In this document: piece by piece, positions 873 to 24,470 of the stretch
Layout: each line of letters begins with the position of its first letter
Position numbering within the stretch: the first letter of the stretch is position 1
Origin: Lachnospiraceae bacterium 46-15
GTDB lineage: Bacteria; Bacillota; Clostridia; Lachnospirales; Lachnospiraceae
Assembly (NCBI GenBank): GCA_041223665.1
Contig: JBCLQO010000006.1
Span: forward strand, 35,365 to 67,364
Length of the DNA: 32,000 bases
Reading direction: 5' to 3'
Notes under the pieces: generated by a model
The model's database searches: none
Seen by the model: the letters and a program-made list of their open reading frames with translations, nothing else
Told to the model about the DNA's origin: nothing
Translations under genes and position numbers: made by a program

Positions 873-3800
873 TTATTTAATTGTTGATTTTTTACTCATA
901 CCGCCTTTTTTCTTAAGGTTGGTAAGCAGTTTCTTCTTCTGCGCTTTCTTTTTAATCTTCTTCACAGTAACGGCAACCTTCTTAGCTGTCTTACTGAAAG
1001 CTTTCTTACCAATCGTTGGAGCTTTCTTACCCTGGAAGGTAACTTTTTTCAGCTTCTTACAGCCCATGAATGCCTGCTTTCCAATGGATTTAACATTCGC
1101 GCCAACCGTCAGCTTTGTGGCATTCTTACAGCTCTTGAAAGCGTTGTTGCCTATCTTTGTTACCTTATAAGTCGTACCATTAATCTTTACTGTAGATTTA
1201 ACTGTTATGCTCTTAAGCTTTGCATCTCCCTTTATGGCCGCCGCAGTTTTGCTCTTAGCATTGTCAATTTTATATTGAATGCCAGATATTGTTACCATGT
1301 CTGATACCGGGCGGTTCGGAACTGGCCCTGGTCCCGGATCTGGCGTTACTGCCGTAAACCGATACGTCACTAACTGCTGTGTCAGACGTGTCAGCTCTGC
1401 CACACTTGGCGCCTCTTTTGCCAGCTCTGCCTGTAAAGCCTTCTTAATAGCCTCATAAGCATTCCAGCTTTCCGCAGTATAACGGCCATTATTGCTGGTT
1501 TCTGCCTTACTCAATGCTGCCTGTGCTGCTGCTTTTGCTTTGCTAAGTTCTTCACTTGGCGGTACAATTGCTGGCGCTTCATCAAATTTGTACTCTTTCA
1601 GCAATTTCGTCAAGCGTATCAGTTCTGCTTCGTCAAGCTCTTCCTTCGCCAGTTCTGCCCGCAGCGCCGCCTTAATAGCTTCATATCCTGCCCAGCTAGC
1701 TTCAGTATAACGGCCTCCATTTACAGCCTCTGCATTGTTCAGCGCCTCTCTTGCCGCATTAGCCGCTTCTGTCGCCATCGTAGTTTCCAGACATGACATA
1801 GCAGCATTAAAGAACTCCCTGACCTTCTGTATCTCCTCAACGGAAAGATTGTCCAATCCCGGGCTGGCTGCCGCATTAGCGATATCATATTGCCGCCTGA
1901 ACTCTACCCAGCTCTCTGCCGTATATTTCGTTCCGCCGCTTTCCAAAGGTACATTACCCCTGCTCATAATAGCGCCCGCTCTTTCTATAGCCGCCTGCGC
2001 CTCTGCTTTCGCCTTTTCCTGCGCTTCCTTGCTCACCACCTTAATAACGAGCTGTTTTCCCTCTGTCGACGCATCTCCAAAGGTGGCGCTGACCACGAGC
2101 ACTATCTGGCCTGGATTCGTTACACGAAGCGTTTTCTGTCCGCCGTCACCGTCAATAATGGAAGCTCCTGCCGTATTCTGGGCTCCTGTTCCAAGTCCAT
2201 ATTCCCGAACCAGCATCGGATCTACGGAATGTTTCAAACAGCCATATCTATTGGTTCGTACTACTACTTTATCATCCATCACAACCGTAGCTGATTCAGC
2301 GCCTGACTCCAGAACAATTTCGGAAGGACCTGTATAAGAAATTGCACCAATCGCACACTCACAAGTATTTTCACTTCTATCCTGCAGGTTTCCATCGGCT
2401 GTCACCAGGTTTTCCTTAGCTGACGCATAAATGTCCGGCTTTCTATTTGCTTTCGACTGAACAAGCGCCTGGGCTCTGTCGTAAGCTGCCCTATATGCCT
2501 GCCAAGTCTGCCGTGTATACCGGAGTTCATCCGTATCTTTCAGCTCTCCGCTTTCATTTTCCACCTGCTTATAAGCAGATTTCCTTGGGTTCTCCTTAAC
2601 ATATTCTGCCAGCGCTGTCTTAGGTTCTTCAAGCCCTTTGCACTTATAAATATAGGTCAATACTGCTCCTGTATCGTCCAATTCACAAGATTCAATATCA
2701 TCTTCTGACACAGTTATCCATTCCTCAGCACCAGCTCCTGTGCTTGGATTTTTTATATACAGGAAATTATTTTCTGCCGCATTTGCCGGGAATACAATAT
2801 CTTTATCTGTATCCTTCGCTAGCTGCTTCTCACCTGTCTCTACCTCAACTTTCAGCCGATAGTCCTCATACGCGCTCGGCATTTCAACCTCTGTCGTACT
2901 GCCTTCCGTATTTTCCAGCCATGTACAGCTCTTCAGCTTGTAGGCAGAAGGATTGCCGCTCAAAACCACATTCGGCTCATGCCCCCGCAGATAATTATCA
3001 AAAAATTCTTTCACTTCAGCCGCCGTATCCACGCTGGCTTCTGGCGCCGTATAATTTCCCAGAAAAGCACTATCTCCTTCCTCACCTGAACGTGTATAGG
3101 AGTACATTTCAAAGTTCTTTATTGTACCTGTATATATTTCTTTGCTAGTTTTTGCAGGAGTCGAATCATCTCCATGCTCCCACATTTCGGCATTATACCC
3201 AATTGTGAATTTCGGGAATTCCGGCGTATGCTCTCCAGGCTTCAGATTCCCGGACACTGCTCTGGCCGTACCGCGTTTTCCACCTGCATACAGTTCAAAC
3301 TTCCCTCCTGTATACACCGCTACCATCTCTATGTTCTGTCCCAGGAACTCCTTGACATCAATCGTTGTTGTTGGCCACAGTTTCCCATTCGCATCGCTTG
3401 GGTTCCATGCACATCCAAACACCTGCAGATTAACCGCGCTTCCGCTCGGCTCTAACTGTATTCCATACTGACTGTTCAACTTTCCGATAATAGACTGCTT
3501 CCCTGTTACTGTTGCGGGCAGCCCCAGCTCACAGCGAATTAAAAAGCTCTTAGTATCGGAATTTGCACTTTCGTGCCCCATATCAAAAATCTGGTTAATC
3601 GTACTTCCATCTGCATCAGTGTTATTTGCTGTTACCATTCCCTGAACGCTTCCATCTTTATTTACTTTAAAACCTTCTTCATAAATAAACTGTACGTCAG
3701 GGTTGTCCGTAGTTCCCGTGATTCCTCCGGTATCCTCCATCCAGACTTTCTGTTCATCAAACGTTCTGTCTATATATACTTTTGGATTGAACTCATCGTT

Positions 3801-6344
3801 AGACAAATCTGCAGTGCCCACGTCTGCCGGCTTCAATCCCACATAACCTTTATACTCATACTCTGCCCGCAAATCTGCCAAAAGCTCTTTATAATATTCC
3901 TCAGATTCATATGCAACTTCCACTGTTCCCGAGGGGTCTGAACTTCCATATGCACCTACTGCGTCAACAGCTTCTTCATAAACCTCTTTAAAAGTTTTCC
4001 AGCTCCTCTTGGAATACTGTGCTTCTGCCTGATCTTTCGCCAGAGAAGCAATCCTGTTCATTTCCTGTGCACGTCCGGAGGTCTGAACCTCAGCTTTCAG
4101 CGCGTTATATGCATCTATTGGTGAATTCAGCGGATCATATTCGTAGTATACGGTCAGATAACTCTTTCCATTCTCATCCGGTCCCTGAACATCACCTATT
4201 GGATATGCCTGAAGCTGGCTGTCTCCGTTCAGGATGACTGTCATCACTTCGGCAAAACGGTTGGTAGTACTCAAGGTTGCTTCAAAGCCATAGGTTACAT
4301 TATCCCTGAATTTCTCATCCGCTGTCATGTCTGTTTTGGTATTACCGTTTTTCTTATACCATTTATAATTCTCCACATTATAATTGCCGTCTATTGCCGC
4401 GGAAATTCTGGAGTTCCCCGCCGTTTCATTATATGTCGGCTCCTTAACGCTCAGTCCTATATCACCTGTTTCCTCCGCAATCCGGGTACCCATAATTTCA
4501 ATTTCGCTGATGCCGATATTCGGATTCATCTCATCCGCATTCGACGCTCTCTCCTTGAATTCAAAACGGACATATCTCTTGAGACGTTTTGTGGTATAGT
4601 TTTCCTCCGGAATGGAAAGTTCCTTAAAACTCTGGCCTCCTGTATTTGTATCTGTCGCATTGCCGACTACTTCCCACGTTCCCGGAAAAACAGGTTCTCC
4701 GCCTGCCAACTCAATATTATTCTCATTTTCGGGCACGCCGTCTGGCTCTTCATACTCGTCCGAAGTGTAAACCATGTAATTATTTGCCGAGTCAAATGCA
4801 AACCATTTAACTTTGATAGAACTTACCAGCGTTGTCGTATCTTCTCCCAAATCAAGTACAAAGTTAGCAGCATCCCTCGTATTATTCAGCATGTTGATAC
4901 CTTTTTGATTTTCAGCATCAAACACGGACGGAACCCAATGTTCAACATCACCTGCCGTTGTTTCTACTTTTCCGTCAATTGCATATTCCGGCGCCAGGGT
5001 GATTGTGTCCTCCCCGTCTTTATATGCATCTGCTCCTGAGTAAGCTGCAATCCGCGTGGAGCCGCCGGCACTGATCCCTAACGCCACGTTCTCCTCACCC
5101 TGCGGTTTCCAAACATCTCCGTGAATTTCAAACTCACGCAGCCCGCCTTCTGCCATGCCGCTGTCTGACGCTGTATTTACGCTCTTAACTACCAGACGGA
5201 CATATCTTTTAAGCGTCGTAGTCCTAAGCTTCCTGTTCACATTATCTGAGTCATTAAACACATCCAATGGCTGCCGAATCGGATTTGCCGCCGTATCACT
5301 GTATACCTGGCGGTCAAACTCTGCTACGGTTGTCCAGGTAGAGCCTTCCTTTCCAGCATAATCCAACTCTGCCCATGAAACCCCCGTACTGTTTTCACCT
5401 AATGTTGACGTACATGTATCCGAAGTCTCTATGGCATATCTGCTTCCCCATCCCCGTGCATTCCATCTAAGCTGAATCTCCGAAATTTTCGTTTCTGTGG
5501 AATGCAGGTCATAAACAATATAGTTTACCTTCCCGTTTCCGTTATTCCATGTGGGTGTGCTCCTCGGCTGCCAATAATCGTTATCAGCCGTACCAGCCTC
5601 CGTATTCCCATGTCCATTAATGGTATTTAGAGGACTCGTATCATTGTTCATCCTTCCAGTATACGCTTTTACGGTTGTTTTCCCGCCGGCACTCGCTCCC
5701 AAAGCCACATTTACGCTCTCTGCTTTCTGGCTCAGCCTTCCAGCCTCATTAATATACATACGGCTTCCGGAGATGAATTTATTCTCTCTTTCTGTACTGC
5801 TTCCAGCTGTCTCCTGTACTTCTACGCATACATGACGCGCCTTCTGCGCCATATCAAAAACAGCTTCCTGCCAGCCATCTGACGTCCATTTATCGTCGGC
5901 CGGCGTCTCATAGACCTGAAGCCATCCTGACTCATCAATCGACTGTACGTCCCCTGTATCTACATTAGATACGTAAATCTTACACCGTTCAATACTGCCA
6001 TCTTCTCCGATTGGTAAATAGCTCACAGAACCCAAAAGCTTGGAGGTTTCAAGGGTAAAATAAAGCTTTTTTCCTTCTGCCGAAGACAATTCATTCGTAA
6101 ACATGTACTTCGACTTTACTTTCAAGCCGCTGACTGGCGTTGAAGCATTCTCCTCACTGCCACTCAAATTAGAGGTCACACTTAACTTTCTTTCATCTAC
6201 TGGCCTATACTTATACTGCAGCCCCATGTCCTGCTCTGTCTGCGCAGCTGCCTGCGCAGAAATCCCTGTCAGATTGGAAAACGGAACACCCGTTACCACC
6301 AAAGTTCCCGCCAGGAAACCCGCTAAAAATCTTTTCCACTTCAT
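873..6344 (-). CDS. Large secreted cell-surface protein (1823 aa). Contains discoidin/F5-8-type-C-like and LamG-like lectin modules, FIVAR repeats, an Ig-like module, a C-terminal BspA-type leucine-rich repeat and a poly-Lys tail.
   Basis: The ORF track gives 873..6455. I place the start at Met38 (ATG 6344-6342) because AAGGAG lies 8 nt upstream and it opens a signal peptide, MKWKRFLAGFLAGTLVVTGVPFSNLTGISAQAAA. Recurrent NVALG.SAGG...W...Y.V..S blocks look like discoidin domains. Repeated (R/K)YT.ESW..Y..A helices look like FIVAR. The tail ...TKIGNNAFKSCKNATKLTVGANVKSIGKQAFMGCKKLKKVTF looks like BspA-type LRR. Confidence 0.85.
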   Translation of the reverse strand: MKWKRFLAGFLAGTLVVTGVPFSNLTGISAQAAAQTEQDMGLQYKYRPVDERKLSVTSNLSGSEENASTPVSGLKVKSKYMFTNELSSAEGKKLYFTLETSKLLGSVSYLPIGEDGSIERCKIYVSNVDTGDVQSIDESGWLQVYETPADDKWTSDGWQEAVFDMAQKARHVCVEVQETAGSSTERENKFISGSRMYINEAGRLSQKAESVNVALGASAGGKTTVKAYTGRMNNDTSPLNTINGHGNTEAGTADNDYWQPRSTPTWNNGNGKVNYIVYDLHSTETKISEIQLRWNARGWGSRYAIETSDTCTSTLGENSTGVSWAELDYAGKEGSTWTTVAEFDRQVYSDTAANPIRQPLDVFNDSDNVNRKLRTTTLKRYVRLVVKSVNTASDSGMAEGGLREFEIHGDVWKPQGEENVALGISAGGSTRIAAYSGADAYKDGEDTITLAPEYAIDGKVETTAGDVEHWVPSVFDAENQKGINMLNNTRDAANFVLDLGEDTTTLVSSIKVKWFAFDSANNYMVYTSDEYEEPDGVPENENNIELAGGEPVFPGTWEVVGNATDTNTGGQSFKELSIPEENYTTKRLKRYVRFEFKERASNADEMNPNIGISEIEIMGTRIAEETGDIGLSVKEPTYNETAGNSRISAAIDGNYNVENYKWYKKNGNTKTDMTADEKFRDNVTYGFEATLSTTNRFAEVMTVILNGDSQLQAYPIGDVQGPDENGKSYLTVYYEYDPLNSPIDAYNALKAEVQTSGRAQEMNRIASLAKDQAEAQYSKRSWKTFKEVYEEAVDAVGAYGSSDPSGTVEVAYESEEYYKELLADLRAEYEYKGYVGLKPADVGTADLSNDEFNPKVYIDRTFDEQKVWMEDTGGITGTTDNPDVQFIYEEGFKVNKDGSVQGMVTANNTDADGSTINQIFDMGHESANSDTKSFLIRCELGLPATVTGKQSIIGKLNSQYGIQLEPSGSAVNLQVFGCAWNPSDANGKLWPTTTIDVKEFLGQNIEMVAVYTGGKFELYAGGKRGTARAVSGNLKPGEHTPEFPKFTIGYNAEMWEHGDDSTPAKTSKEIYTGTIKNFEMYSYTRSGEEGDSAFLGNYTAPEASVDTAAEVKEFFDNYLRGHEPNVVLSGNPSAYKLKSCTWLENTEGSTTEVEMPSAYEDYRLKVEVETGEKQLAKDTDKDIVFPANAAENNFLYIKNPSTGAGAEEWITVSEDDIESCELDDTGAVLTYIYKCKGLEEPKTALAEYVKENPRKSAYKQVENESGELKDTDELRYTRQTWQAYRAAYDRAQALVQSKANRKPDIYASAKENLVTADGNLQDRSENTCECAIGAISYTGPSEIVLESGAESATVVMDDKVVVRTNRYGCLKHSVDPMLVREYGLGTGAQNTAGASIIDGDGGQKTLRVTNPGQIVLVVSATFGDASTEGKQLVIKVVSKEAQEKAKAEAQAAIERAGAIMSRGNVPLESGGTKYTAESWVEFRRQYDIANAAASPGLDNLSVEEIQKVREFFNAAMSCLETTMATEAANAAREALNNAEAVNGGRYTEASWAGYEAIKAALRAELAKEELDEAELIRLTKLLKEYKFDEAPAIVPPSEELSKAKAAAQAALSKAETSNNGRYTAESWNAYEAIKKALQAELAKEAPSVAELTRLTQQLVTYRFTAVTPDPGPGPVPNRPVSDMVTISGIQYKIDNAKSKTAAAIKGDAKLKSITVKSTVKINGTTYKVTKIGNNAFKSCKNATKLTVGANVKSIGKQAFMGCKKLKKVTFQGKKAPTIGKKAFSKTAKKVAVTVKKIKKKAQKKKLLTNLKKKGGMSKKSTIK

Positions 6345-6506
6345 ACTTAAAATCTCCTTCGCAAAATAACTGGTGTACTTTACACCCAATTTATCAGATA
6401 ACAAAAAACTCTGGAACTTTTTCTGTCCCTCTGAACATACCATCTCCTTTCCCATAAAAATCCCCTTTTATAGAAGTTTTTGCAAAACTTTTTCCTAATC
6501 TTTTTA

Positions 6507-6658: not shown

Positions 6659-6729
6659 AGGGGATTGGTCAAATGGTATGACAGGAGTCTCCAAAACTCT
6701 TAGCGGGAGTTCGATTCTCTCATCCCCTG
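6659..6729 (+). tRNA. trnW: tRNA-Trp, anticodon CCA; the 3' CCA is not encoded
   Basis: Hand-folded cloverleaf. Acceptor stem AGGGGAT/ATCCCCT. D stem GTCA/TGAC. Anticodon stem GGAGT/ACTCT with loop CU-CCA-AA. T arm GGGAG-TTCGATT-CTCTC. Discriminator G at 6729. Confidence 0.93.
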
Positions 6730-6740
6730 CTATATACATA

Positions 6741-7699: not shown

Positions 7700-8338
7700 T
7701 TACTGTGTCTGCCTGTATTGAAATAAAACCCGGCAGATAACGCTTACCAAAACAGCGGATACAATCGCTTCCGGAACTCCGTTGATTCCGATGACAGACA
7801 GGATAAACGTGTAAACCGCCCCTTCTGCCACGTTGTTGGCAGCAGCATAAGCTGCACGGAAAAATACATAAATCAAGTTCATCACCAACAGCGTATTTGT
7901 TAACGCTCCCGCAATCCCGGCAGCTGCAAGGGAAAGCATCTGCTTCCCGGCAGTATGTTCAAGCCCACGGTATACATACCAGGGAACCACACCCACCAGT
8001 ATCCTCGGCACAAAGCAGATAATCACGCTTCCTATTCCGCCATGCACCTCCCCCAGCTCAAAAAATGGAGTGAATACAAAGCTGGTTGCCGTCGGGTTCA
8101 TCGTATTGTTGATAAAGCTTGTCATTCCAAATACAAATCCCAAAAATGCACCCTTTTTAGGCCCAAGCATCAGGGAACCGATAATGACCGGTATGTGGAT
8201 AATCGTTGCACGGGTAAATCCCAGAGGAATATAGCCCAGAAACGGTGTGAACGCCAGGATGATAATCAGTGCCGCGAAAAGTGCAACCTGTACCATGCCC
8301 AGGGTTTGTGAAGTGTTTTCATGTGATGTTGTTTTCAT
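7700..8338 (-). CDS. ECF transporter S-component-like membrane protein; pantothenate (PanT-like) specificity is suggested only by linkage to coaX
   Basis: The product is polytopic and hydrophobic. I moved the start to Met17 (ATG 8338-8336) because AAGGAGAG lies 7 nt upstream. The gene sits 71 nt upstream of coaX with no convincing terminator between them. Confidence 0.75.
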   Translation of the reverse strand: MKTTSHENTSQTLGMVQVALFAALIIILAFTPFLGYIPLGFTRATIIHIPVIIGSLMLGPKKGAFLGFVFGMTSFINNTMNPTATSFVFTPFFELGEVHGGIGSVIICFVPRILVGVVPWYVYRGLEHTAGKQMLSLAAAGIAGALTNTLLVMNLIYVFFRAAYAAANNVAEGAVYTFILSVIGINGVPEAIVSAVLVSVICRVLFQYRQTQ

Positions 8339-8389
8339 GTTTTTTCTCTCCTTGTTATTATTCTCGTTGTTGAGATACAATACCAAGAC

Positions 8390-8418
8390 AGTATAGCATA
8401 TCTGCGCAGAGAGTTCAA
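8390..8418 (-). promoter_or_regulatory. Promoter candidate for the S-component/coaX pair
   Basis: Minus strand reads TTGAAC (8418-8413), a 17-nt spacer, then TATACT (8395-8390). Confidence 0.5.
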
Positions 8419-8464
8419 AAGCAAATTCACCAAAACAGCTTCCAAATCAACTGCCTTGGTGAAT
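8414..8464 (-). terminator. Rho-independent terminator closing the SIR2 operon
   Basis: Minus strand has a 14-bp stem, ATTCACCAAGGCAG / CTGTTTTGGTGAAT, with two G-U pairs and a 12-nt loop, followed by TTGCTTTTG. It starts 13 nt after the SIR2 stop codon. Confidence 0.6.
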
Positions 8465-8476
8465 CTATGTATCTAT

Positions 8477-9700
8477 TTATCCACAAAATCCATGTATCAA
8501 TTCCGGCAGTTCGTCAAAAGTCGTCCAGATAGGAATAATACCGTGCCGTTTCCAATAATGGTACTGGGCAAAAAGCCTGTCGATGAGCTGGATGTTTTTA
8601 TATACAAAATTTTTATCTTCCAGGAACTCCCGACGGATTTTATCTTTTTTTACCTCCGAATCCCCTCCTGCTGCTGATATTAGAAGTTCTTCCTCGTATC
8701 TCTTATCTACTTCTTCTTGATACAATTCATGAAACAAGTCGTTAAGGCAGAAAAAAATGTAATGCCTGGGCTTACATGCACAATCTACATTCTTAATAAT
8801 CCTCCGAAAATTATAATCATCTCCCGAAAATCCTATAAATACACAGCTCGTATCCATCAGCGCTTTGGCCTGGACAGAATTTTGCCAGCTATATGCTTTC
8901 TGCTCCATCTGATAGTAACTATGTTCTGTCAAAATCATATGCTCAGATTCTTTGCTGAACCTATTTCTTTTAATTGACAATGCCCCGTGGGGATGATGGA
9001 TATTTATCCTCTGAGAATTGTGAATTTTTCTCTCGTCACAATCGCAAATCACCTGCACTGCATCGGAAGATACGTTGGCAACTTTATCCAGACAGAACTC
9101 CAGCAAATCATCATAATTATACGTAATTACACTGCCTTTTTTCTGCTTTTTCAACAGCTTTGCCAAATATCCCACTGCCTGATTCTTCAATTTGTTCTTA
9201 AGCTCTGTCTCTTCCATAACCGTCTGCAGGGAGTCACGCAGCAATGCTTTCAGTACCCGTTCCTGAAGCCTTCTCTTTTCCCTTTGATTCCCTCCTTCAG
9301 GTATCAGCATTTCAATATAATTCCACATATATTCCGCTGATTCCAGCATATTTACGCCTTTCCAAAAATCTTTAAACTTTCCTTGCAGCGCTTTTTCTGC
9401 TATTGAATGATATGCCGGATAACCTTTTGTCTCCTGCAGCGCCCTGTGTTTTGCGCTTTGGAAGATTCTTTCCCCTTCTTCTATCTCATGGTTTAAAGGC
9501 ATTTCATTTTCTAATTCTGAAAGCCTGGCCCACATTTTAGCCAAAAGTGTTGTCCAGTTGGGAAGCCCTGCGGGCGCGCTGATTCCCGCGCCTAATATCC
9601 ATGTGACGTTCTCATCTGTTACTTCTTTTTTCAGCATGTCGTAATGCTTTCTATTTAACTTATAAATATCTTTCCCCAATATTTCTTTTGTCGTCAGCAT
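8477..9700 (-). CDS. SIR2-like (SIR2_2 / ThsA-DSR-type) putative NAD+-hydrolysing effector, 407 aa
   Basis: The ORF track gives 8477..9739. I place the start at Met14 (ATG 9700-9698), which has an AAGGGAG RBS and lies 2 nt after the upstream stop codon. Four motifs occur in the canonical order: WILGAGISAPAGLPNW, VITYNYDDLLE, IHHPHG, then MILTEHSYY and FIGFSGDDYNFRRI. The Asn-to-His spacing is 43 aa. Confidence 0.8.
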   Translation of the reverse strand: MLTTKEILGKDIYKLNRKHYDMLKKEVTDENVTWILGAGISAPAGLPNWTTLLAKMWARLSELENEMPLNHEIEEGERIFQSAKHRALQETKGYPAYHSIAEKALQGKFKDFWKGVNMLESAEYMWNYIEMLIPEGGNQREKRRLQERVLKALLRDSLQTVMEETELKNKLKNQAVGYLAKLLKKQKKGSVITYNYDDLLEFCLDKVANVSSDAVQVICDCDERKIHNSQRINIHHPHGALSIKRNRFSKESEHMILTEHSYYQMEQKAYSWQNSVQAKALMDTSCVFIGFSGDDYNFRRIIKNVDCACKPRHYIFFCLNDLFHELYQEEVDKRYEEELLISAAGGDSEVKKDKIRREFLEDKNFVYKNIQLIDRLFAQYHYWKRHGIIPIWTTFDELPELIHGFCG

Positions 9701-9702
9701 TT

Positions 9703-12570
9703 TTACAACTCCCTTTTTCCATGCGCTAACTGTCTCCACAAATCATTCATTTTATCCAAAAGAAGATACATTTCCTGCGGCGACTGCATATTTGACAATC
9801 TGCTTATTTCTTTTATTTTATCGAATTTATTTGTCCGGAAGATCTCCATACAGGCATTTAAATATCCTTCAAGCTCAACTTTACATCCCTCGTCAAATTC
9901 CTCTTGATATTCCCATAAAATCTCATCAATCCTGTCGCATAGGCAGTCAGAATAGTCTTCCTTTCTGCAATACTTAAACCCCTGGGTTTTCCAGTACTTC
10001 ATCTTTTCTTCAATTTTTTCCCTTTCCTGGAGTTTCAATTTTCCTTCTACCCCATAGAGCATTTTCATTTCTGAGCCAAACCGAAAAGTTTCCAGCTTTG
10101 TTCTTGGAAACGCAAGTTCGATATCCCAAGTCTCATAAATAAGGCTTAAAATGAAATCTTCCATTGGAATTCCCAAAATCTGGGCTGCAATACAATCCGC
10201 ATAACTTTCTTTCATAGAATCAATAAGCACAAGAATCACATCGCCAACGGTCGCTATATCATTTTTATCTATGTGCACTTCCTCTGGAATAAGCACCTGA
10301 TTCCCAATGTATATGTCAAATAATGCCTGCAGCACTCTTTCTTCCTCTGGATCATATCTGTCATCTTTCTGAGCCTCCAACTTATATTCGGAAGTCTCCC
10401 TTAAAATGTTTGCTCCTGAAAATTTGATCCCCTGTGTACCCAGATACTTTATCAAATCCTCCGCAACCCGGTGCTGATATTTCATATACTTCCGGTAAGT
10501 ATATGAAAAAAAAGAATTACCCGTTTCACGTTCAATAGATTGAAAAACCTCTTCTCTTCCAAGCTCCCCCATTACTGTCTGAAGGTTACTTCCAAAAAAT
10601 GCAAATTCTTCCCATCCCTCGCTGCCCTCTTCCATTTTCCTGCACATTTCCTCAATAAGTTCTGTTTTCATTTCCTCCCTTCTCCGCCAAACGAATTCCA
10701 GGCTTTTCTTCTTCACTTCTTCCCATTCCGTCGGCGAAAAACGGTTTTCCAAAGCATAAAAAACAGTTTTTCTCATATGCTCAGTAAGACTTGTTTTCAA
10801 CCCATTGCTTATTATCCATGCAGAATAAGATGAAAAACTCCTTATCAAATGCCCAAACCGTTCCACTCTTTTTCTTTCCCCGCAAAAATGCAGGCATTCA
10901 TGGAGAATTCTGAACATCGTACCTTTTATATCATACAAGCTCATCTCCGGCACTGTTATAATAATCAGAGAATGCCCTTCTTCATCCGCCGGATCCATAT
11001 ACGAAAAAATATCACTTGCTGTCGTCACGTCACAACCTCCACTCATGATTACAAACGTATATGTTTCCTTCTGCCCTTCATTCTCCCCGCTTTTCGTTTC
11101 CATCAGCATTTGCGCTGTTTTATTAATATACTGGTTATAGAAGAACAGCAGTTTCGTTGCAGAACCGATTGACGGGTGCGATAAAGACTGCCCTTCTATA
11201 AAAGAACGGTCAGATCTCTGCATGTCCGCCAGATAGTCTCCTATATTTTCCCGAAAAATCCCTACCGCCGAAAGCAGCCGTTCTACCAAGATTTCTTTTA
11301 CTTCTATATCTTCTGCTTCCTCTAACATCCTCATGGTTCTTTTCATATTGCACACCATGGCTTTAAATGCACTTCCAATAATTTCCTGAATATCAAAACA
11401 ATGAGATTCACGTATCAGGCCCAAAAAGCTTTTCATAACTGCCTGCAGTCCATTTACAAGCCGTATTGGTTTTCCATACTCTTCTACAAGCCCTGCTAAA
11501 TCCTCAATTAAATCTACAAACTCTCTTTGATATTCTTCATATGCGCCATCTATTCCATTCCCCGGCACTTCAAACTGCACTTCCTTTTCCACTCCCACCC
11601 GAATAGATGAACATAGATTCCTGATATATGCCGGAAACTGCTCATTGCCAGGATTAAAAAGCTTCGAATCATAAAATAGCGGTATAAAAAGACCAAACGG
11701 CATATCAGATAATATCAGGCAATCTGAATTGCCAAACATCTGATAGAGTTCTGACTGCTTTTCAATTTTATCAAGATTTTGCGCAACGCATATATTTTCC
11801 AGTTCCGCATCAAAATACTTTTGGAACTGACCCGCTGATACACCTTCTCTGAGGTTTACACGTATAGAAAGTTTTACATTATCAAGCATCAGCTTATCCA
11901 AATTCTGCAGCCCTTCTTTTGCAAATCCTGTAATCGCATAACTATTTGACAGCACCGGATAACTCCTGTCTCCTTCTATGACCTGCGTCTCCCTCAAAAT
12001 ATCCAAAATGTCAATAACTTTCTGAGGATTATCACTGAGGAACAACAGTGTAAAATCCGCATAGCCGATTGACGGCATGACTGCGCAGTGGACTTCTTCC
12101 AATGGAATTGCTCTCTTATCTGCAGCATCTTTGATAGAAATTACAATTTTGTCCAATAGTTCTTCTCTTCCCGCTACAAATTGTTTTGATAAATTAATTA
12201 CAGAAACCGAAATAAAAGGATATCGTTTTAACAGCTCCACACAAGAATCGTTACTGTCACGATATCCCATCTGCTCCCATATATTATAAGCAAATCCTTG
12301 CTTTTCCAGACATTCTCTTACCTCTGGCTTTGGCATATATAATTTCAACGTGTATTTATCTTGAAAGGTATCTCCAATTATAATGTTGCCTGCCCTTTCA
12401 CACACACCTTTCGGCCTCAACTGATACCACTCGCGTGTGCAGTGAATATCCATCCCATCATAATGCCCAAACATCATATATTGATAATCTCTCGTATCAT
12501 CTTGGCTAATACATGATATTCGTTTCTTTAAAGTAATCAGCATTCCATTAAATCCATCCGTGCTGTTCAT
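9703..12570 (-). CDS. Large hypothetical protein, 955 aa, partner of the SIR2 gene. No P-loop was seen. An internal HExxH motif is present.
   Basis: The ORF track gives 9703..12603. I place the start at Met12 (ATG 12570-12568) because AAGGAGGTG lies 6 nt upstream. HECLH is encoded at 10888-10902. I recognise no family. Coding status is supported by the long open frame, the strong RBS and coupling to the next gene. Confidence 0.8.
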   Translation of the reverse strand: MNSTDGFNGMLITLKKRISCISQDDTRDYQYMMFGHYDGMDIHCTREWYQLRPKGVCERAGNIIIGDTFQDKYTLKLYMPKPEVRECLEKQGFAYNIWEQMGYRDSNDSCVELLKRYPFISVSVINLSKQFVAGREELLDKIVISIKDAADKRAIPLEEVHCAVMPSIGYADFTLLFLSDNPQKVIDILDILRETQVIEGDRSYPVLSNSYAITGFAKEGLQNLDKLMLDNVKLSIRVNLREGVSAGQFQKYFDAELENICVAQNLDKIEKQSELYQMFGNSDCLILSDMPFGLFIPLFYDSKLFNPGNEQFPAYIRNLCSSIRVGVEKEVQFEVPGNGIDGAYEEYQREFVDLIEDLAGLVEEYGKPIRLVNGLQAVMKSFLGLIRESHCFDIQEIIGSAFKAMVCNMKRTMRMLEEAEDIEVKEILVERLLSAVGIFRENIGDYLADMQRSDRSFIEGQSLSHPSIGSATKLLFFYNQYINKTAQMLMETKSGENEGQKETYTFVIMSGGCDVTTASDIFSYMDPADEEGHSLIIITVPEMSLYDIKGTMFRILHECLHFCGERKRVERFGHLIRSFSSYSAWIISNGLKTSLTEHMRKTVFYALENRFSPTEWEEVKKKSLEFVWRRREEMKTELIEEMCRKMEEGSEGWEEFAFFGSNLQTVMGELGREEVFQSIERETGNSFFSYTYRKYMKYQHRVAEDLIKYLGTQGIKFSGANILRETSEYKLEAQKDDRYDPEEERVLQALFDIYIGNQVLIPEEVHIDKNDIATVGDVILVLIDSMKESYADCIAAQILGIPMEDFILSLIYETWDIELAFPRTKLETFRFGSEMKMLYGVEGKLKLQEREKIEEKMKYWKTQGFKYCRKEDYSDCLCDRIDEILWEYQEEFDEGCKVELEGYLNACMEIFRTNKFDKIKEISRLSNMQSPQEMYLLLDKMNDLWRQLAHGKREL

Positions 12571-12610
12571 GCTGCCACCTCCTTGTACAAATCTTTCTAT
12601 CAATCATGAA

Positions 12611-12645
12611 AGCCCTGTCTATAGATTTCTCCATAGCACAGGGCT
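12611..12645. repeat. Imperfect inverted repeat/hairpin in the leader of the 955-aa gene
   Basis: AGCCCTGT...ACAGGGCT is 8 bp perfect, with 5 further pairs after a 1-nt bulge. On the minus strand it is followed by TTCATGATTG, which is not a good U-tract. It ends 41 nt upstream of the ATG at 12570. Confidence 0.5.
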
Positions 12646-12667
12646 GCCCTTCATGAACGTCATGTTA

Positions 12668-12829
12668 TCATATTCCTCTGCTTACCGGACTGAAAATCCT
12701 TGTTTTCTCTGAATACTCATGCATCGGCATACGCAAATCCTCTTTAGGAGAACGCATATTGCTCTTTTTCCCAGCAGGGGCTACATTCTTTAACCACAAT
12801 TTCTTTTTATCCAACTTCTTTCCCGCCAT
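12668..12829 (-). CDS. Possible small basic protein (53 aa), hypothetical
   Basis: This is the internal Met12 of track ORF 12668..12862. AAGAGGTG lies 5 nt upstream of ATG 12829-12827. The product is MAGKKLDKKKLWLKNVAPAGKKSNMRSPKEDLRMPMHEYSEKTRIFSPVSRGI. No recognisable family, so it may be non-coding. Confidence 0.25.
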   Translation of the reverse strand: MAGKKLDKKKLWLKNVAPAGKKSNMRSPKEDLRMPMHEYSEKTRIFSPVSRGI

Positions 12830-12871
12830 ACCTGCACCTCTTGTCTCCAATAATGCTACCATAGAACAAAC

Positions 12872-12907
12872 GATAGCTATACAAAATATCTATGCGTATA
12901 GCTTATC
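12872..12907. repeat. Near-perfect inverted repeat (possible operator) at the head of the islet
   Basis: GATAGCTATAC, 13 nt, then GTATAGCT(T)ATC. The arms are 11 nt with one extra T in the right arm. Confidence 0.5.
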
Positions 12908-12960
12908 CCATGTACCAAAAAATATACTATTTCTATGCTGCTTGCCACCAGCATTATTGA

Positions 12961-12999
12961 TTGCAAAGAAAGCAGGATGAACCGAAATTCAACCTGCTT
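12961..12999 (-). terminator. Terminator candidate after rplQ (end of the alpha operon)
   Basis: Minus strand reads AAGCAGG-T-TGAA-TTTCGG-TTCA-T-CCTGCTT, which is 11 bp with one T-T mismatch, followed by TCTTTGCAA. It starts 21 nt after the rplQ stop codon. Confidence 0.55.
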
Positions 13000-13020
13000 G
13001 ATCCCATAAAGTTTCTGCTC

Positions 13021-16140: not shown

Positions 16141-16602
16141 GTAATTTTCCTCCATTTTCCCGGCCGGTCCACGCAGCCCACTGTCCCGGGTGGACAGTGC
16201 CTGAAATGCTGTGCGCTCCCTGCGCCTTCATAAATATTGTCCCTAATTGAGATACCTTCTATCTGACAGCCCTAAAACAAGCTGGCTTTTTTCCGGTATC
16301 CAGCCGCATAAAATACGGCCTTTCCGTACTTACGACGGTACGCATAAGTCCGGTATTTGAGCAATATATTTCGTGTAATGCAACAGCAGCAAAATGGAAA
16401 AGGAAGCTTTGTAGGCTTCTTGGCATTTTTCTCCGTTGCCACTCTACTATATATTGTCATCAGTATGACAACACCGCCTGGCGCGTCACACTGCAGCCGC
16501 TTTAAATCTTGCAAACATAAACCTGGAAGTTCGATTCGCCCTGCTCACCGAACAGCTTTTCCACGAAACACACGCACTCTGCGCCTATTCCGTATCCAAT
16601 GC

Positions 16603-24189: not shown

Positions 24190-24470
24190 CCTTTCATTAA
24201 AAAAGCCCTCCCAATATCATATTGAGAAGGCGAGTTTTCCCGCGTTACCACTTCACTTTGTCCATTCCTCACAGAATGAACCTCTGCAAGTGCGAATTTC
24301 ACACTCTTCCGCTGTAACAGGCGGTTCCTGTCGCAGCCTTGCCGCACTCCTGTGCAGTTCGGTGCGCCGCTCAGAAGCCATCTTCCATCCATCTTCCTAT
24401 ATCCCTCTCAGCCGCCGGGAATTCTCTGTAATATTCCAAAGGATGTACTCTCTTCGTCTCTGCGTTTTCC
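24190..24470 (-). promoter_or_regulatory. T-box riboswitch leader, Met-specific, with intrinsic terminator
   Basis: On the minus strand, the Stem I base reads GACGAAGAGAGUAC, followed by the CAGAGA...GGCUGAGAG elements. The Specifier-loop 3' side reads GGAUG-GAAG-AUG-G-CUUC, placing AUG at 24381-24379. The T-box sequence is AAGUGGUAACGCGGG (24253-24239). The terminator GCCUUCUCAAUAU-GAU-AUUGGGAGGGC plus UUUUUU lies at 24233-24199. Confidence 0.85.

Follow-up and report, generated by a model that had tools for sequence, protein, structure and literature searches.

What does a protein of 955 residues, recognized by no domain library, do next to a gene for a SIR2 family enzyme? We examined this question at a locus of Lachnospiraceae bacterium 46-15, within a stretch of 32,000 nucleotides (GenBank assembly GCA_041223665.1, contig JBCLQO010000006.1, positions 35,365 to 67,364 of the forward strand) that we refer to as the window. 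The large gene, called gene A here, had been described from the sequence alone as encoding a possible sensor joined to a metallopeptidase that controls the adjoining SIR2 effector (the original prediction). The best reading of our analysis is that gene A, the SIR2 gene, a small gene that we call S and an RNA hairpin between S and A form an undescribed, chromosomal three-gene cassette of gut Clostridia, mostly Lachnospiraceae (Table 1). We consider, with a probability of about 0.55, that A is a zincin-bearing regulator of the SIR2 effector and that the cassette is of a defence type.

Genes of the cassette and their linkage

Gene A is confirmed as a real open reading frame (ORF). It starts with an ATG at 12570 that is preceded by an AGGAGG ribosome-binding site, and GenBank lists an identical product from the same bacterium as a 'hypothetical protein' (MEY8427093.1). 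Residues are numbered here in the scheme of 955 amino acids (aa); 11 has to be subtracted from the numbers of the original prediction because they were counted from an in-frame TTG at 12603 and the real start is the ATG. That TTG falls within the hairpin at 12601–12659. Once the numbering was adjusted, all of the motifs pointed out earlier were found where they had been placed: HECLH at residues 557–561 (nt 10888–10902), the distal E-x-x-A-D segment ESYADCIAAQILGIP at residues 788–802 (nt 10165–10209) and three G-x-x-D motifs at residues 35–38, 169–172 and 280–283. A P-loop had been reported missing, and we also found no Walker A-type pattern when the 955-aa product was scanned for GxxxxGK[ST], [AG]xxxxGK[ST] and GK[ST]; the second of these patterns is present in only 4/180 relatives, and no aligned P-loop is apparent in the family.

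A word-indexed search for homologues of A found 75 proteins, and an exhaustive profile search returned 773 cluster representatives at 50% identity, 184 of them at E ≤ 1e-30. Conservation was assessed in a local alignment of 181 sequences, comprising 180 full-length proteins (of 201 retrieved) and the window protein, and extending down to about 18% identity. The number of HExxH motifs expected by chance in A, which has only 13 histidines, is 0.019, and the motif appeared in 1.7% of shuffled sequences; the count of bare GxxD (5 observed, 3.6 expected) is unremarkable. HExxH, ExxxD and GxxD stand above chance because they are conserved across the 181 full-length family representatives. H557 is present in 181/181, E558 and H561 each in 180/181 and G564 in 179/181, and the distal E788 and D792 are present in 180/181 and 179/181, so that the four residues on which the original prediction hinged (H557, E558, H561 and E788) are essentially invariant. 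Within and around the same core, E542 is found in 181/181, R566 in 175/181, R568 in 177/181, R571 in 180/181 and R830 in 179/181. The N-terminal motifs are similarly retained (G35 180/181, D38 175/181; G169 178/181, D172 177/181; G280 169/181, D283 175/181). The alignments produced by the homology searches themselves are in agreement.

The family of A lacks annotation in every library that we searched. The window protein had no match to Pfam, NCBIfam, PADLOC or PHROG models; 49 diverse relatives scanned against Pfam and PADLOC revealed no recurrent family. With PADLOC-DB v2.0.0 there were 0 matches for the window protein and scattered single matches, at E ≥ 6.6e-4, for the 49 relatives. Single relatives weakly matched Cas10 (E 0.012, 0.02 and 0.95) and an oligonucleotide cyclase (E 0.005), which is probably chance level over 49 scans.

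The product of the gene directly downstream of A is identical to MEY8427092.1 ('SIR2 family protein') and is matched by Pfam SIR2_2 (PF13289) at 1.4e-15; its nearest PADLOC models are ThsA and LmuA (E 1e-12 to 1e-11). Judged from its motifs, the enzyme looks catalytically intact: GAGxS (residues 37–41), N195, D197, H236, H238 and G239 are conserved in 20–22 of 22 partner SIR2 proteins, with GAGxS, N195 and H238-G239 in 21–22 of them. A SIR2 homologue lies directly downstream of A in all of the distinct loci examined (at least 26), and A is in this sense strictly coupled to a SIR2 gene. The flanks of these loci are unrelated and include ribosomal operons and genes for ATP synthase or for sugar metabolism. 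The SIR2 score falls with the identity of A, from 417 bits at 50% to 269 at 30%, 106 at 24% and 76 at 19%; the two proteins have diverged in parallel.

We also observed a small gene, S, upstream of A and beyond the coordinates covered by the original prediction. Its product is identical to GenBank MEY8427094.1. Translation from a further in-frame ATG upstream, at 12862, would extend the product to 64 aa, but that codon lacks a ribosome-binding site. Homologues of S, which are ORFs of 43–78 aa located 250–350 nt upstream of A, were found at about 20 loci; most have a GGAGG-type ribosome-binding site, and they have in common the motif A-G-K-x-R-S-L-H-S-P-x-x-G. In one pair of loci (L001/L018), S differs 20/9/32 times at the three codon positions, an excess at third positions, and a hidden Markov model (HMM) of the S family matched only S ORFs in about 400 kb of six-frame translation. 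Because of the ribosome-binding sites, the common motif, the third-position excess and the specificity of the HMM, we take the S homologues to be coding, and S is a conserved protein and probably the third component of the cassette. It is basic and of low complexity, without a Cys-rich or Ser/Thr-rich core, and Pfam contained no family that matched it.

The hairpin between S and A has a predicted stability of −30.4 kcal/mol (z = −5.8), which was reached by 0/200 shuffled sequences, and about 30 nt, including the ribosome-binding site, separate it from the ATG of A. An equivalent hairpin directly follows S in 12/12 loci tested (z −3.6 to −7.6), and in most of them a U-run comes after it. In the window, the U-tract of the hairpin is weak and a consensus scan did not detect the element, and Rfam contained no family matching the region upstream of A. 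Given a strong hairpin directly after S, its position suggests that A and SIR2 must depend largely on read-through and that S should be made in excess over both. The S gene and the terminator, both missed by the original prediction, change the likely logic of the system.

A genome scan with a closer alignment of A as the query gave matches that were all in Clostridia, mostly Lachnospiraceae, with examples in Hominisplanchenecus, Hungatella, Blautia, Butyrivibrio, Marvinbryantia and Ruminiclostridium. Insertion sites vary between loci. H. murintestinalis DSM 111139 has two whole cassettes that are about 30% identical (L011 and L019, on contigs 6 and 2), one beside rplQ, as in the window, and the other between rplA and a pyrimidine-nucleoside phosphorylase gene. 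The GC content of the window cassette is 0.39–0.41 (window 8001–13000), compared with 0.44–0.49 in the flanking ribosomal, rpoA and metabolic genes, which is consistent with horizontal acquisition between rplQ and a pair of genes for an energy-coupling factor (ECF) transporter S-component and coaX. Occasional neighbours of the cassette are two serine recombinases and genes with single matches to models of MADS components, AriA, ShosA/PsyrA and AbiLi. Directly upstream of one cassette is a gene for a 777-aa protein with SIR2 and tetratricopeptide repeat (TPR) regions (L010:357-2690), DSR-like and with matches to the ThsA and Aga SIR2 models, and two SIR2 systems stand side by side there. The GC content, the varied sites, the two 30%-identical versions in one genome, the hypervariable insert of A described below and some of the defence neighbours are signs of mobility and of an arms race.

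Table 1. Positions in the window of the cassette and of the parts of gene A (residues of A in the 955-aa scheme; model, AlphaFold2)
Feature	Position (nt)	Strand	Description
Small gene S	12668–12829	−	53-aa basic protein (MAGKKLDKKKLWLKNVAPAGKKSNMRSPKEDLRMPMHEYSEKTRIFSPVSRGI); stop codon 12668–12670
RNA hairpin	12601–12659	−	Terminator/attenuator-like; between S and A
Large gene A	9703–12570	−	955 aa; multidomain partner protein; stop codon 9703–9705
SIR2 gene	8477–9700	−	407 aa; ATG 2 nt downstream of the gene A stop codon
N-terminal region of A, residues 5–330	11581–12558	−	Three tandem beta-alpha-beta-beta-alpha-beta modules (secondary structure of the model)
GxxD motif 1, G35-H-Y-D38	12457–12468	−	Module 1 hairpin, between strands 31–34 and 39–45
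GxxD motif 2, G169-Y-A-D172	12055–12066	−	Module 2 hairpin, between strands 163–167 and 173–179
GxxD motif 3, G280-N-S-D283	11722–11733	−	Module 3 hairpin, between strands 274–277 and 284–291
Conserved segment of A, residues 449–498	11077–11226	−	D449...RSDRxFIEGxSLSHPSIGSATKLLFFYN; low-confidence loop, then helix before the zincin sheet; conserved in all loci inspected
Putative zincin core, N half, residues 499–575	10846–11076	−	Three strands, E542, active-site helix
Hypervariable helical insert, residues 576–770	10261–10845	−	Between the two putative zinc-ligand helices
Putative zincin core, C half, residues 771–840	10051–10260	−	Helix 775–799 with E788-S-Y-A-D792 (nt 10195–10209); R830
C-terminal helical region, residues 841–955	9706–10050	−	Conserved Y903

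Zincin-type core and N-terminal modules of A

An AlphaFold2 model of A, built from an alignment of 71 sequences, had a mean predicted local distance difference test (pLDDT) score of 88.9 and a predicted template modelling (pTM) score of 0.90, and a second model, of residues 495–955, had a pLDDT of 92.7. In the full model, residues 336–955 are helical except for one small sheet, with a helical scaffold between the N-terminal modules and the core. HExxH lies on the helix 548–563, which reads H557-E-C-L-H561-F-C-G564-E-R566-K-R568-V-E-R571 (HExxHxxG, nt 10879–10902); it is an invariant motif of a real active-site type, in line with the original prediction. The predicted elements follow one another as a helix (472–494), three strands (503–510, 517–520 and 533–540), the HExxHxxG helix, long helices (568–755) and the helix 775–799 with E788xxxD792. 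E-x-x-x-D downstream of HExxH is the classical gluzincin signature, known from thermolysin and neprilysin. A has HExxH on a helix, the glutamate of a downstream helix in an ExxxD context, and an N-terminal helix with a three-stranded sheet, as in gluzincins. The zincin-like metallopeptidase (MPTase) core has been defined as an N-terminal helix, a three-stranded sheet, the HExxH helix and a later helix, with inserts allowed between the last two helices (PMC5512222), and the order of elements in A is that of this published definition.

The two putative ligand helices are separated by the most variable part of the protein. Entropy in A is lowest in the zincin core (mean 2.07 bits) and highest in the insert (3.38 bits), whose length ranges from 130 to 284 aa across the family and which is predicted with high pLDDT to be all-helical, including a long helical hairpin formed by residues 568–610 and 613–649. 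The distance from HExxH to the glutamate is 153–338 aa in the family (median 236); in the window protein, H557 and E788 are 231 aa apart, with 227 residues between H561 and K787. A distal E-x-x-A-D partner across a large insertion, as originally suggested, agrees with the near-invariance of E788 and D792. By mutual information, residues 516, 544, 550 and 554 pair with 812 and 813 across the insert (ranks 3–37 of 320,600 pairs). Contacts of this kind are dominated by clade effects, and these few cross-insert pairs are suggestive, lending weak support to packing of the two halves of the core against each other. The invariant zincin-type site is the most conserved part of A and appears to be its functional heart.

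The second most conserved stretch is residues 449–498, where conservation reaches 90% or more at D449, S453, E459, H465, S470, L474 and Y478. In the model, a loop at about 461–471 has a pLDDT of 56–66 and is followed by the helix 472–494; the stretch could serve as a flap or a pseudo-substrate, or A could cleave itself there. A kinship of its SLSHPSIG with the SLHSPxxG motif of S was considered and found unsupported, as the two showed no co-variation across loci. A fourth conserved GxxD is found in SGGCD (residues 510–514, nt 11029–11043; G511 in 180/181, D514 in 172/181), in the loop between the first two strands of the zincin sheet, where it may line the putative active site.

To which zincins is the core closest? 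Sequence searches of PDB with the single sequence, a full-length profile and an insert-deleted core profile gave sub-threshold matches to ArdC only, at E 1.3 with phmmer and E 0.4 with the insert-deleted core profile. The alignment pairs HExxHfcGeRlRkeR with HEATHWTGHKSRLDR, the shared pattern being HExxHxxGxxxRxxR. With the ArdC fragment as the query, proteins of PF18818 ('zincin-like metallopeptidase') were retrieved, in which the next helix reads YAFEELIAELGAAF, compared with KECYADCMAAKIL in A (common pattern ExxA[DE]xxAA). hhalign aligned the core of A with a PF18818-type profile at a probability of 62% (P 7.4e-5, 85 columns), a moderate match and the only link of A to a known family; the comparison profile is thin because the search with the ArdC fragment gave only 7 short sequences. 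The PF18818 Pfam model itself gave no hmmscan match at the gathering threshold in A or the 49 relatives. The original prediction had likened the E-x-x-A-D segment to M78/ImmA-IrrE peptidases; membership of that family is not supported, as neither A nor any of the 49 diverse relatives matched PF06114 at E ≤ 1 and the PDB searches brought up no IrrE chain at E ≤ 10. From its motifs and the model, we take the core of A to be a zincin that comes closest to the ArdC type, although it cannot be shown to belong to PF18818 or to M78/ImmA-IrrE. A PD-(D/E)xK nuclease reading of the same region (MDPAD...LYDIK), raised earlier as an alternative, is rejected because K549 is a lysine in only 39/181 sequences and the MDPAD residues are variable.

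These comparisons define how A differs from its closest relatives in type. The C-terminal domain of ArdC and the MPTase of polyvalent proteins (PF18818; PDB 6I89, 6SNA) share with A the N-terminal helix, the three-stranded sheet, HExxHxxGxxxRxxR and the later ExxA[DE]xxAA helix. In these proteins, however, the insert is about 25 aa, compared with 150–340 aa in the A family; A lacks the ArdC-N domain, which binds single-stranded DNA, and its gene lies in a chromosomal cassette with SIR2 and not on a plasmid or phage. M78/ImmA-IrrE proteins (PF06114), among them the CapP-type regulators of cyclic oligonucleotide-based antiphage signalling systems (CBASS), follow the same motif logic as A, HExxH and then E-x-x-A-[ND]-x-x-A-x-x-L, but with a block spacing of about 25–35 aa, compared with 153–338 aa in the A family. 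Proteases of this group act as switches in stress and immune regulation. Unlike them, A has no paired helix-turn-helix repressor in its cassette, and its core is embedded in a 955-aa multidomain protein.

The N-terminal third of A had been proposed to contain repeated ferredoxin-like modules, and the model contains three (about residues 5–112, 113–228 and 229–330). Each GxxD forms the turn of the beta2-beta3 hairpin, at the same structural position in all three modules. Foldseek supported the repeats at the level of the fold: when the full model was compared with PDB, all of the 19 best matches and the majority of the first 50 were to the tandem ferredoxin-like barrels of coproheme decarboxylase (HemQ) and chlorite dismutase (about 245 aligned columns, 8–15% identity, E about 1e-2, target TM score 0.5–0.6). 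A search of viral structures with the full model gave nothing useful. Compared with chlorite dismutase, HemQ and DyP, A has three modules instead of two, lacks a conserved haem-ligand histidine and has no profile link. The three modules of A align with one another in hhalign over the hairpin only (10–18 columns). The suggestion of a sensor of the RAM type stood as to the beta-alpha-beta-beta-alpha-beta fold class and failed as to family, since the PF01037 (Lrp/AsnC RAM) and ACT profiles had no match in 49 members of the A family; the hairpin G-x-x-D resembles the 'tGeyD' hairpin of Lrp-AsnC RAM domains. The model makes the array a candidate platform for binding a ligand or partner, without a catalytic signature. 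Ferredoxin-like modules with a hairpin GxxD have a palm-like topology, which gives the Cas10 and cyclase matches some interest. A palm-domain cyclase or polymerase reading of the modules was rejected, as there is no conserved acidic residue at the end of beta1.

How the cassette may work and which alternatives compete

In the mechanism that we favour, SIR2 would be the effector and would deplete NAD+, leading to abortive infection, and A would form a complex with SIR2 and gate its NADase by proteolysis. The hypervariable insert would be the surface that meets the invader, with the insert, the N-terminal modules or both receiving the trigger. The likeliest and most economical candidate for the cleavage target would be over-produced S acting as an inhibitor, with the hairpin ensuring its stoichiometric excess over the other two proteins; alternatively, A would cut an inhibitory segment within SIR2 or within its own chain. 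What the analysis shows is the anatomy, the conservation, the gene linkage and the hairpins; that A binds zinc and is a peptidase, what it cleaves, that the cassette serves in defence and which component controls which are inferred. One specific form of this mechanism is a 'protease-timer' switch, in which promoter-proximal S keeps the SIR2 NADase inactive until the split zincin of the same cassette destroys it, whereupon NAD+ collapses. We offer it tentatively, as a version with perhaps a minority chance of being right. S might be destroyed conditionally, when the insert or the ferredoxin-like modules meet a phage cue, or continuously, such that phage shut-off of host expression would remove the inhibitor.

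A natural mutant bears on the direction of control. A 1-nt insertion (GATTATTGG to GATTAATTGG; L036:7480-7490 compared with L037) splits A into 402 + 547 aa and leaves S and SIR2 intact. In this lineage, which has been sampled widely, 345 contigs carry the 402-aa product and 230 the intact allele. Because the split allele persists beside an intact SIR2 gene, loss of A is tolerated, which argues against A as an indispensable antitoxin and fits an activator or gate.

Several observations weigh against a zincin-bearing regulator in a defence cassette. HMMER searches of Pfam with the window protein and 49 relatives found no significant peptidase-family match, and neither the full model nor that of residues 495–955 matched a zincin in Foldseek; against PDB, the latter gave helical-bundle noise and no analogue, as one would expect when an insert of 200 residues breaks up a small core. 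E788 is presumed to be the third zinc ligand from its sequence context and the predicted secondary structure. Searches of phage, plasmid and IMG/VR collections turned up no copy of the cassette, its neighbours are mostly housekeeping genes, and enrichment in defence islands is weak. Two very distant A-like proteins have no SIR2 neighbour: P0164 (L035:2330-6860) follows a radical-SAM gene with CxxxCxxC that has weak matches to SPASM peptide maturases and pVip, and P0201 (L033:474-3308) stands alone, with three small downstream ORFs (76, 124 and 94 aa) that have no NCBIfam or Pfam match. The two halves of the split A might still function as separate polypeptides. Finally, the succession of a small ORF such as S, a leaky terminator and enzymes is, by analogy, also a classic layout for operons of ribosomally synthesized and post-translationally modified peptides (RiPPs).

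This last point leads to a rival reading, in which the cassette is a RiPP-like pathway without a role in immunity: S would be a precursor made in excess, A a scaffold and leader peptidase, and SIR2 an enzyme that modifies the peptide, for example by ADP-ribosylation, or a related substrate. In its favour, nisA-type lantibiotic operons have the same arrangement of a small conserved ORF, a strong hairpin or terminator and then large enzymes, the conserved site of A is of a peptidase type, and P0164 adjoins a radical-SAM gene. However, the matches of that gene to SPASM maturases are weak, generic and confined to one locus, S has no Cys-rich or Ser/Thr-rich core, and the flanks contained no exporter, immunity gene or RiPP recognition element (RRE)-type domain. 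SIR2_2 proteins are known from defence systems, and the defence models nearest to this one are the ThsA and LmuA effectors. We consider the pathway an unlikely explanation. The layout also recurs in type III ToxIN, which, like lantibiotic operons and the cassette, has a short first cistron and a strong hairpin or terminator, with downstream genes reached by read-through; the first product is a protein, S, in the cassette, compared with an RNA antitoxin in ToxIN and an exported peptide in lantibiotic operons. An over-expressed first cistron is common in toxin–antitoxin design, as in ToxIN, and the tight coupling of the three genes and their varied insertion sites would also suit a toxin–antitoxin-like unit, in which A, or A with S, neutralizes a constitutively toxic SIR2 without catalysis and HExxH...E is a structural metal site. 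Such a site needs neither E558 nor D792, yet these are conserved in 180/181 and 179/181 sequences, and the frameshifted allele of A persists with an intact SIR2 gene on hundreds of contigs; we regard this reading as very improbable.

The invariant catalytic-type site, as the best-conserved part of A, would also fit an effector protease that cleaves an essential host factor or a phage protein, with SIR2 as a parallel effector or accessory. There is precedent in dual-effector systems and in Lit, a zinc-metalloprotease that acts as an abortive-infection protein. The strict adjacency, the translational coupling (ATG 2 nt past the stop codon) and the parallel divergence nevertheless point to A and SIR2 as partners both physically and functionally, and a Lit-type role leaves the conserved S gene and its terminator unexplained, so we consider it quite improbable. 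A last alternative is compatible with regulation of SIR2 by a zincin and differs in the trigger: a metabolite or nucleotide bound by the ferredoxin-like modules would switch the protease and SIR2. The tandem array, the near-invariant GxxD of its hairpins and a conserved K15-K16-R17 strand in the N-terminal region speak for ligand binding, and the fold class of dimeric alpha+beta barrels includes the ligand-binding domains of Lrp/AsnC. We find it doubtful, as the 49 members have no sequence link to PF01037 or ACT, the modules align mutually over the hairpin only, the cassette contains no cyclase or other signal-producing gene, and the GxxD in the hairpins could be a purely structural beta-turn.

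Surroundings, related systems and significance

Elsewhere in the window, Rfam identified a tRNA-Trp gene at 6659–6730 (+), an S4-Clostridia ribosomal protein leader at 16242–16324 (−), upstream of rpsM-rpsK-rpsD-rpoA-rplQ, and a T-box leader at 24223–24469 (−). A 1860-aa ORF at 873–6455 (−) has an apparent signal-peptide or membrane segment at its start, contains repeated modules and is basic towards its C terminus; it probably encodes a cell-surface protein and is unrelated to the cassette.

Among the effectors of bacterial immunity, SIR2 NADases form one of the main classes. The switches known for them are a nucleotide signal, a phage tail tube protein, HerA, prokaryotic Argonaute (pAgo) and STAND proteins, each of which has taught a principle of activation. 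Thoeris ThsA, DSR1/DSR2, SIR2-HerA, SPARSA, Avs5 and Kongming KomBC resemble the cassette in combining a SIR2_2-type NADase with a dedicated sensor or regulator. A, however, is not a SLOG protein, HerA ATPase, pAgo, STAND NTPase, TPR or other solenoid, or pyrophosphatase; it carries a putative zincin site and, unlike the HerA, STAND/Avs and SMC-like LmuB partners of SIR2, has no P-loop. In addition, the cassette contains a third, small gene and a terminator that the known SIR2 systems do not have. To our knowledge, Thoeris, DSR1/DSR2, SIR2-HerA, SPARSA, Avs5 and Kongming all use partners other than a metallopeptidase, and a full-text literature search found no paper that pairs SIR2 with a metallopeptidase partner. 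Proteolysis turns sensing into effector activation in Craspase, in CalpL-CalpT-CalpS, in gasdermin-activating proteases and in Lit; the concept is shared, although the protease folds and triggers are unrelated and none of these proteases is known to gate SIR2. The parts of the cassette are thus of known kinds (a SIR2 effector, a zincin and ferredoxin-like modules), whereas the architecture of A, its split site, the third gene and the terminator arrangement are undescribed.

If the proposed mechanism is correct, no earlier SIR2 system would have been gated in this way, by a dedicated metalloprotease together with a proteinaceous inhibitor, and the domain architecture, which has no Pfam coverage, would be new. 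The cassette offers handles in its invariant catalytic-type residues, its natural frameshift allele and its size, since three genes can readily be moved into a heterologous host for expression. That the ligand helices of the putative zincin core can be separated by a hypervariable insert of 130–284 residues is also of interest for the evolution and engineering of proteases. The family comprises about 770 cluster representatives in gut Clostridia, organisms whose defence systems have rarely been tested, and in these bacteria the cassette would, if our reading is true, add proteolysis and a small protein component to the modes by which SIR2 effectors are activated.

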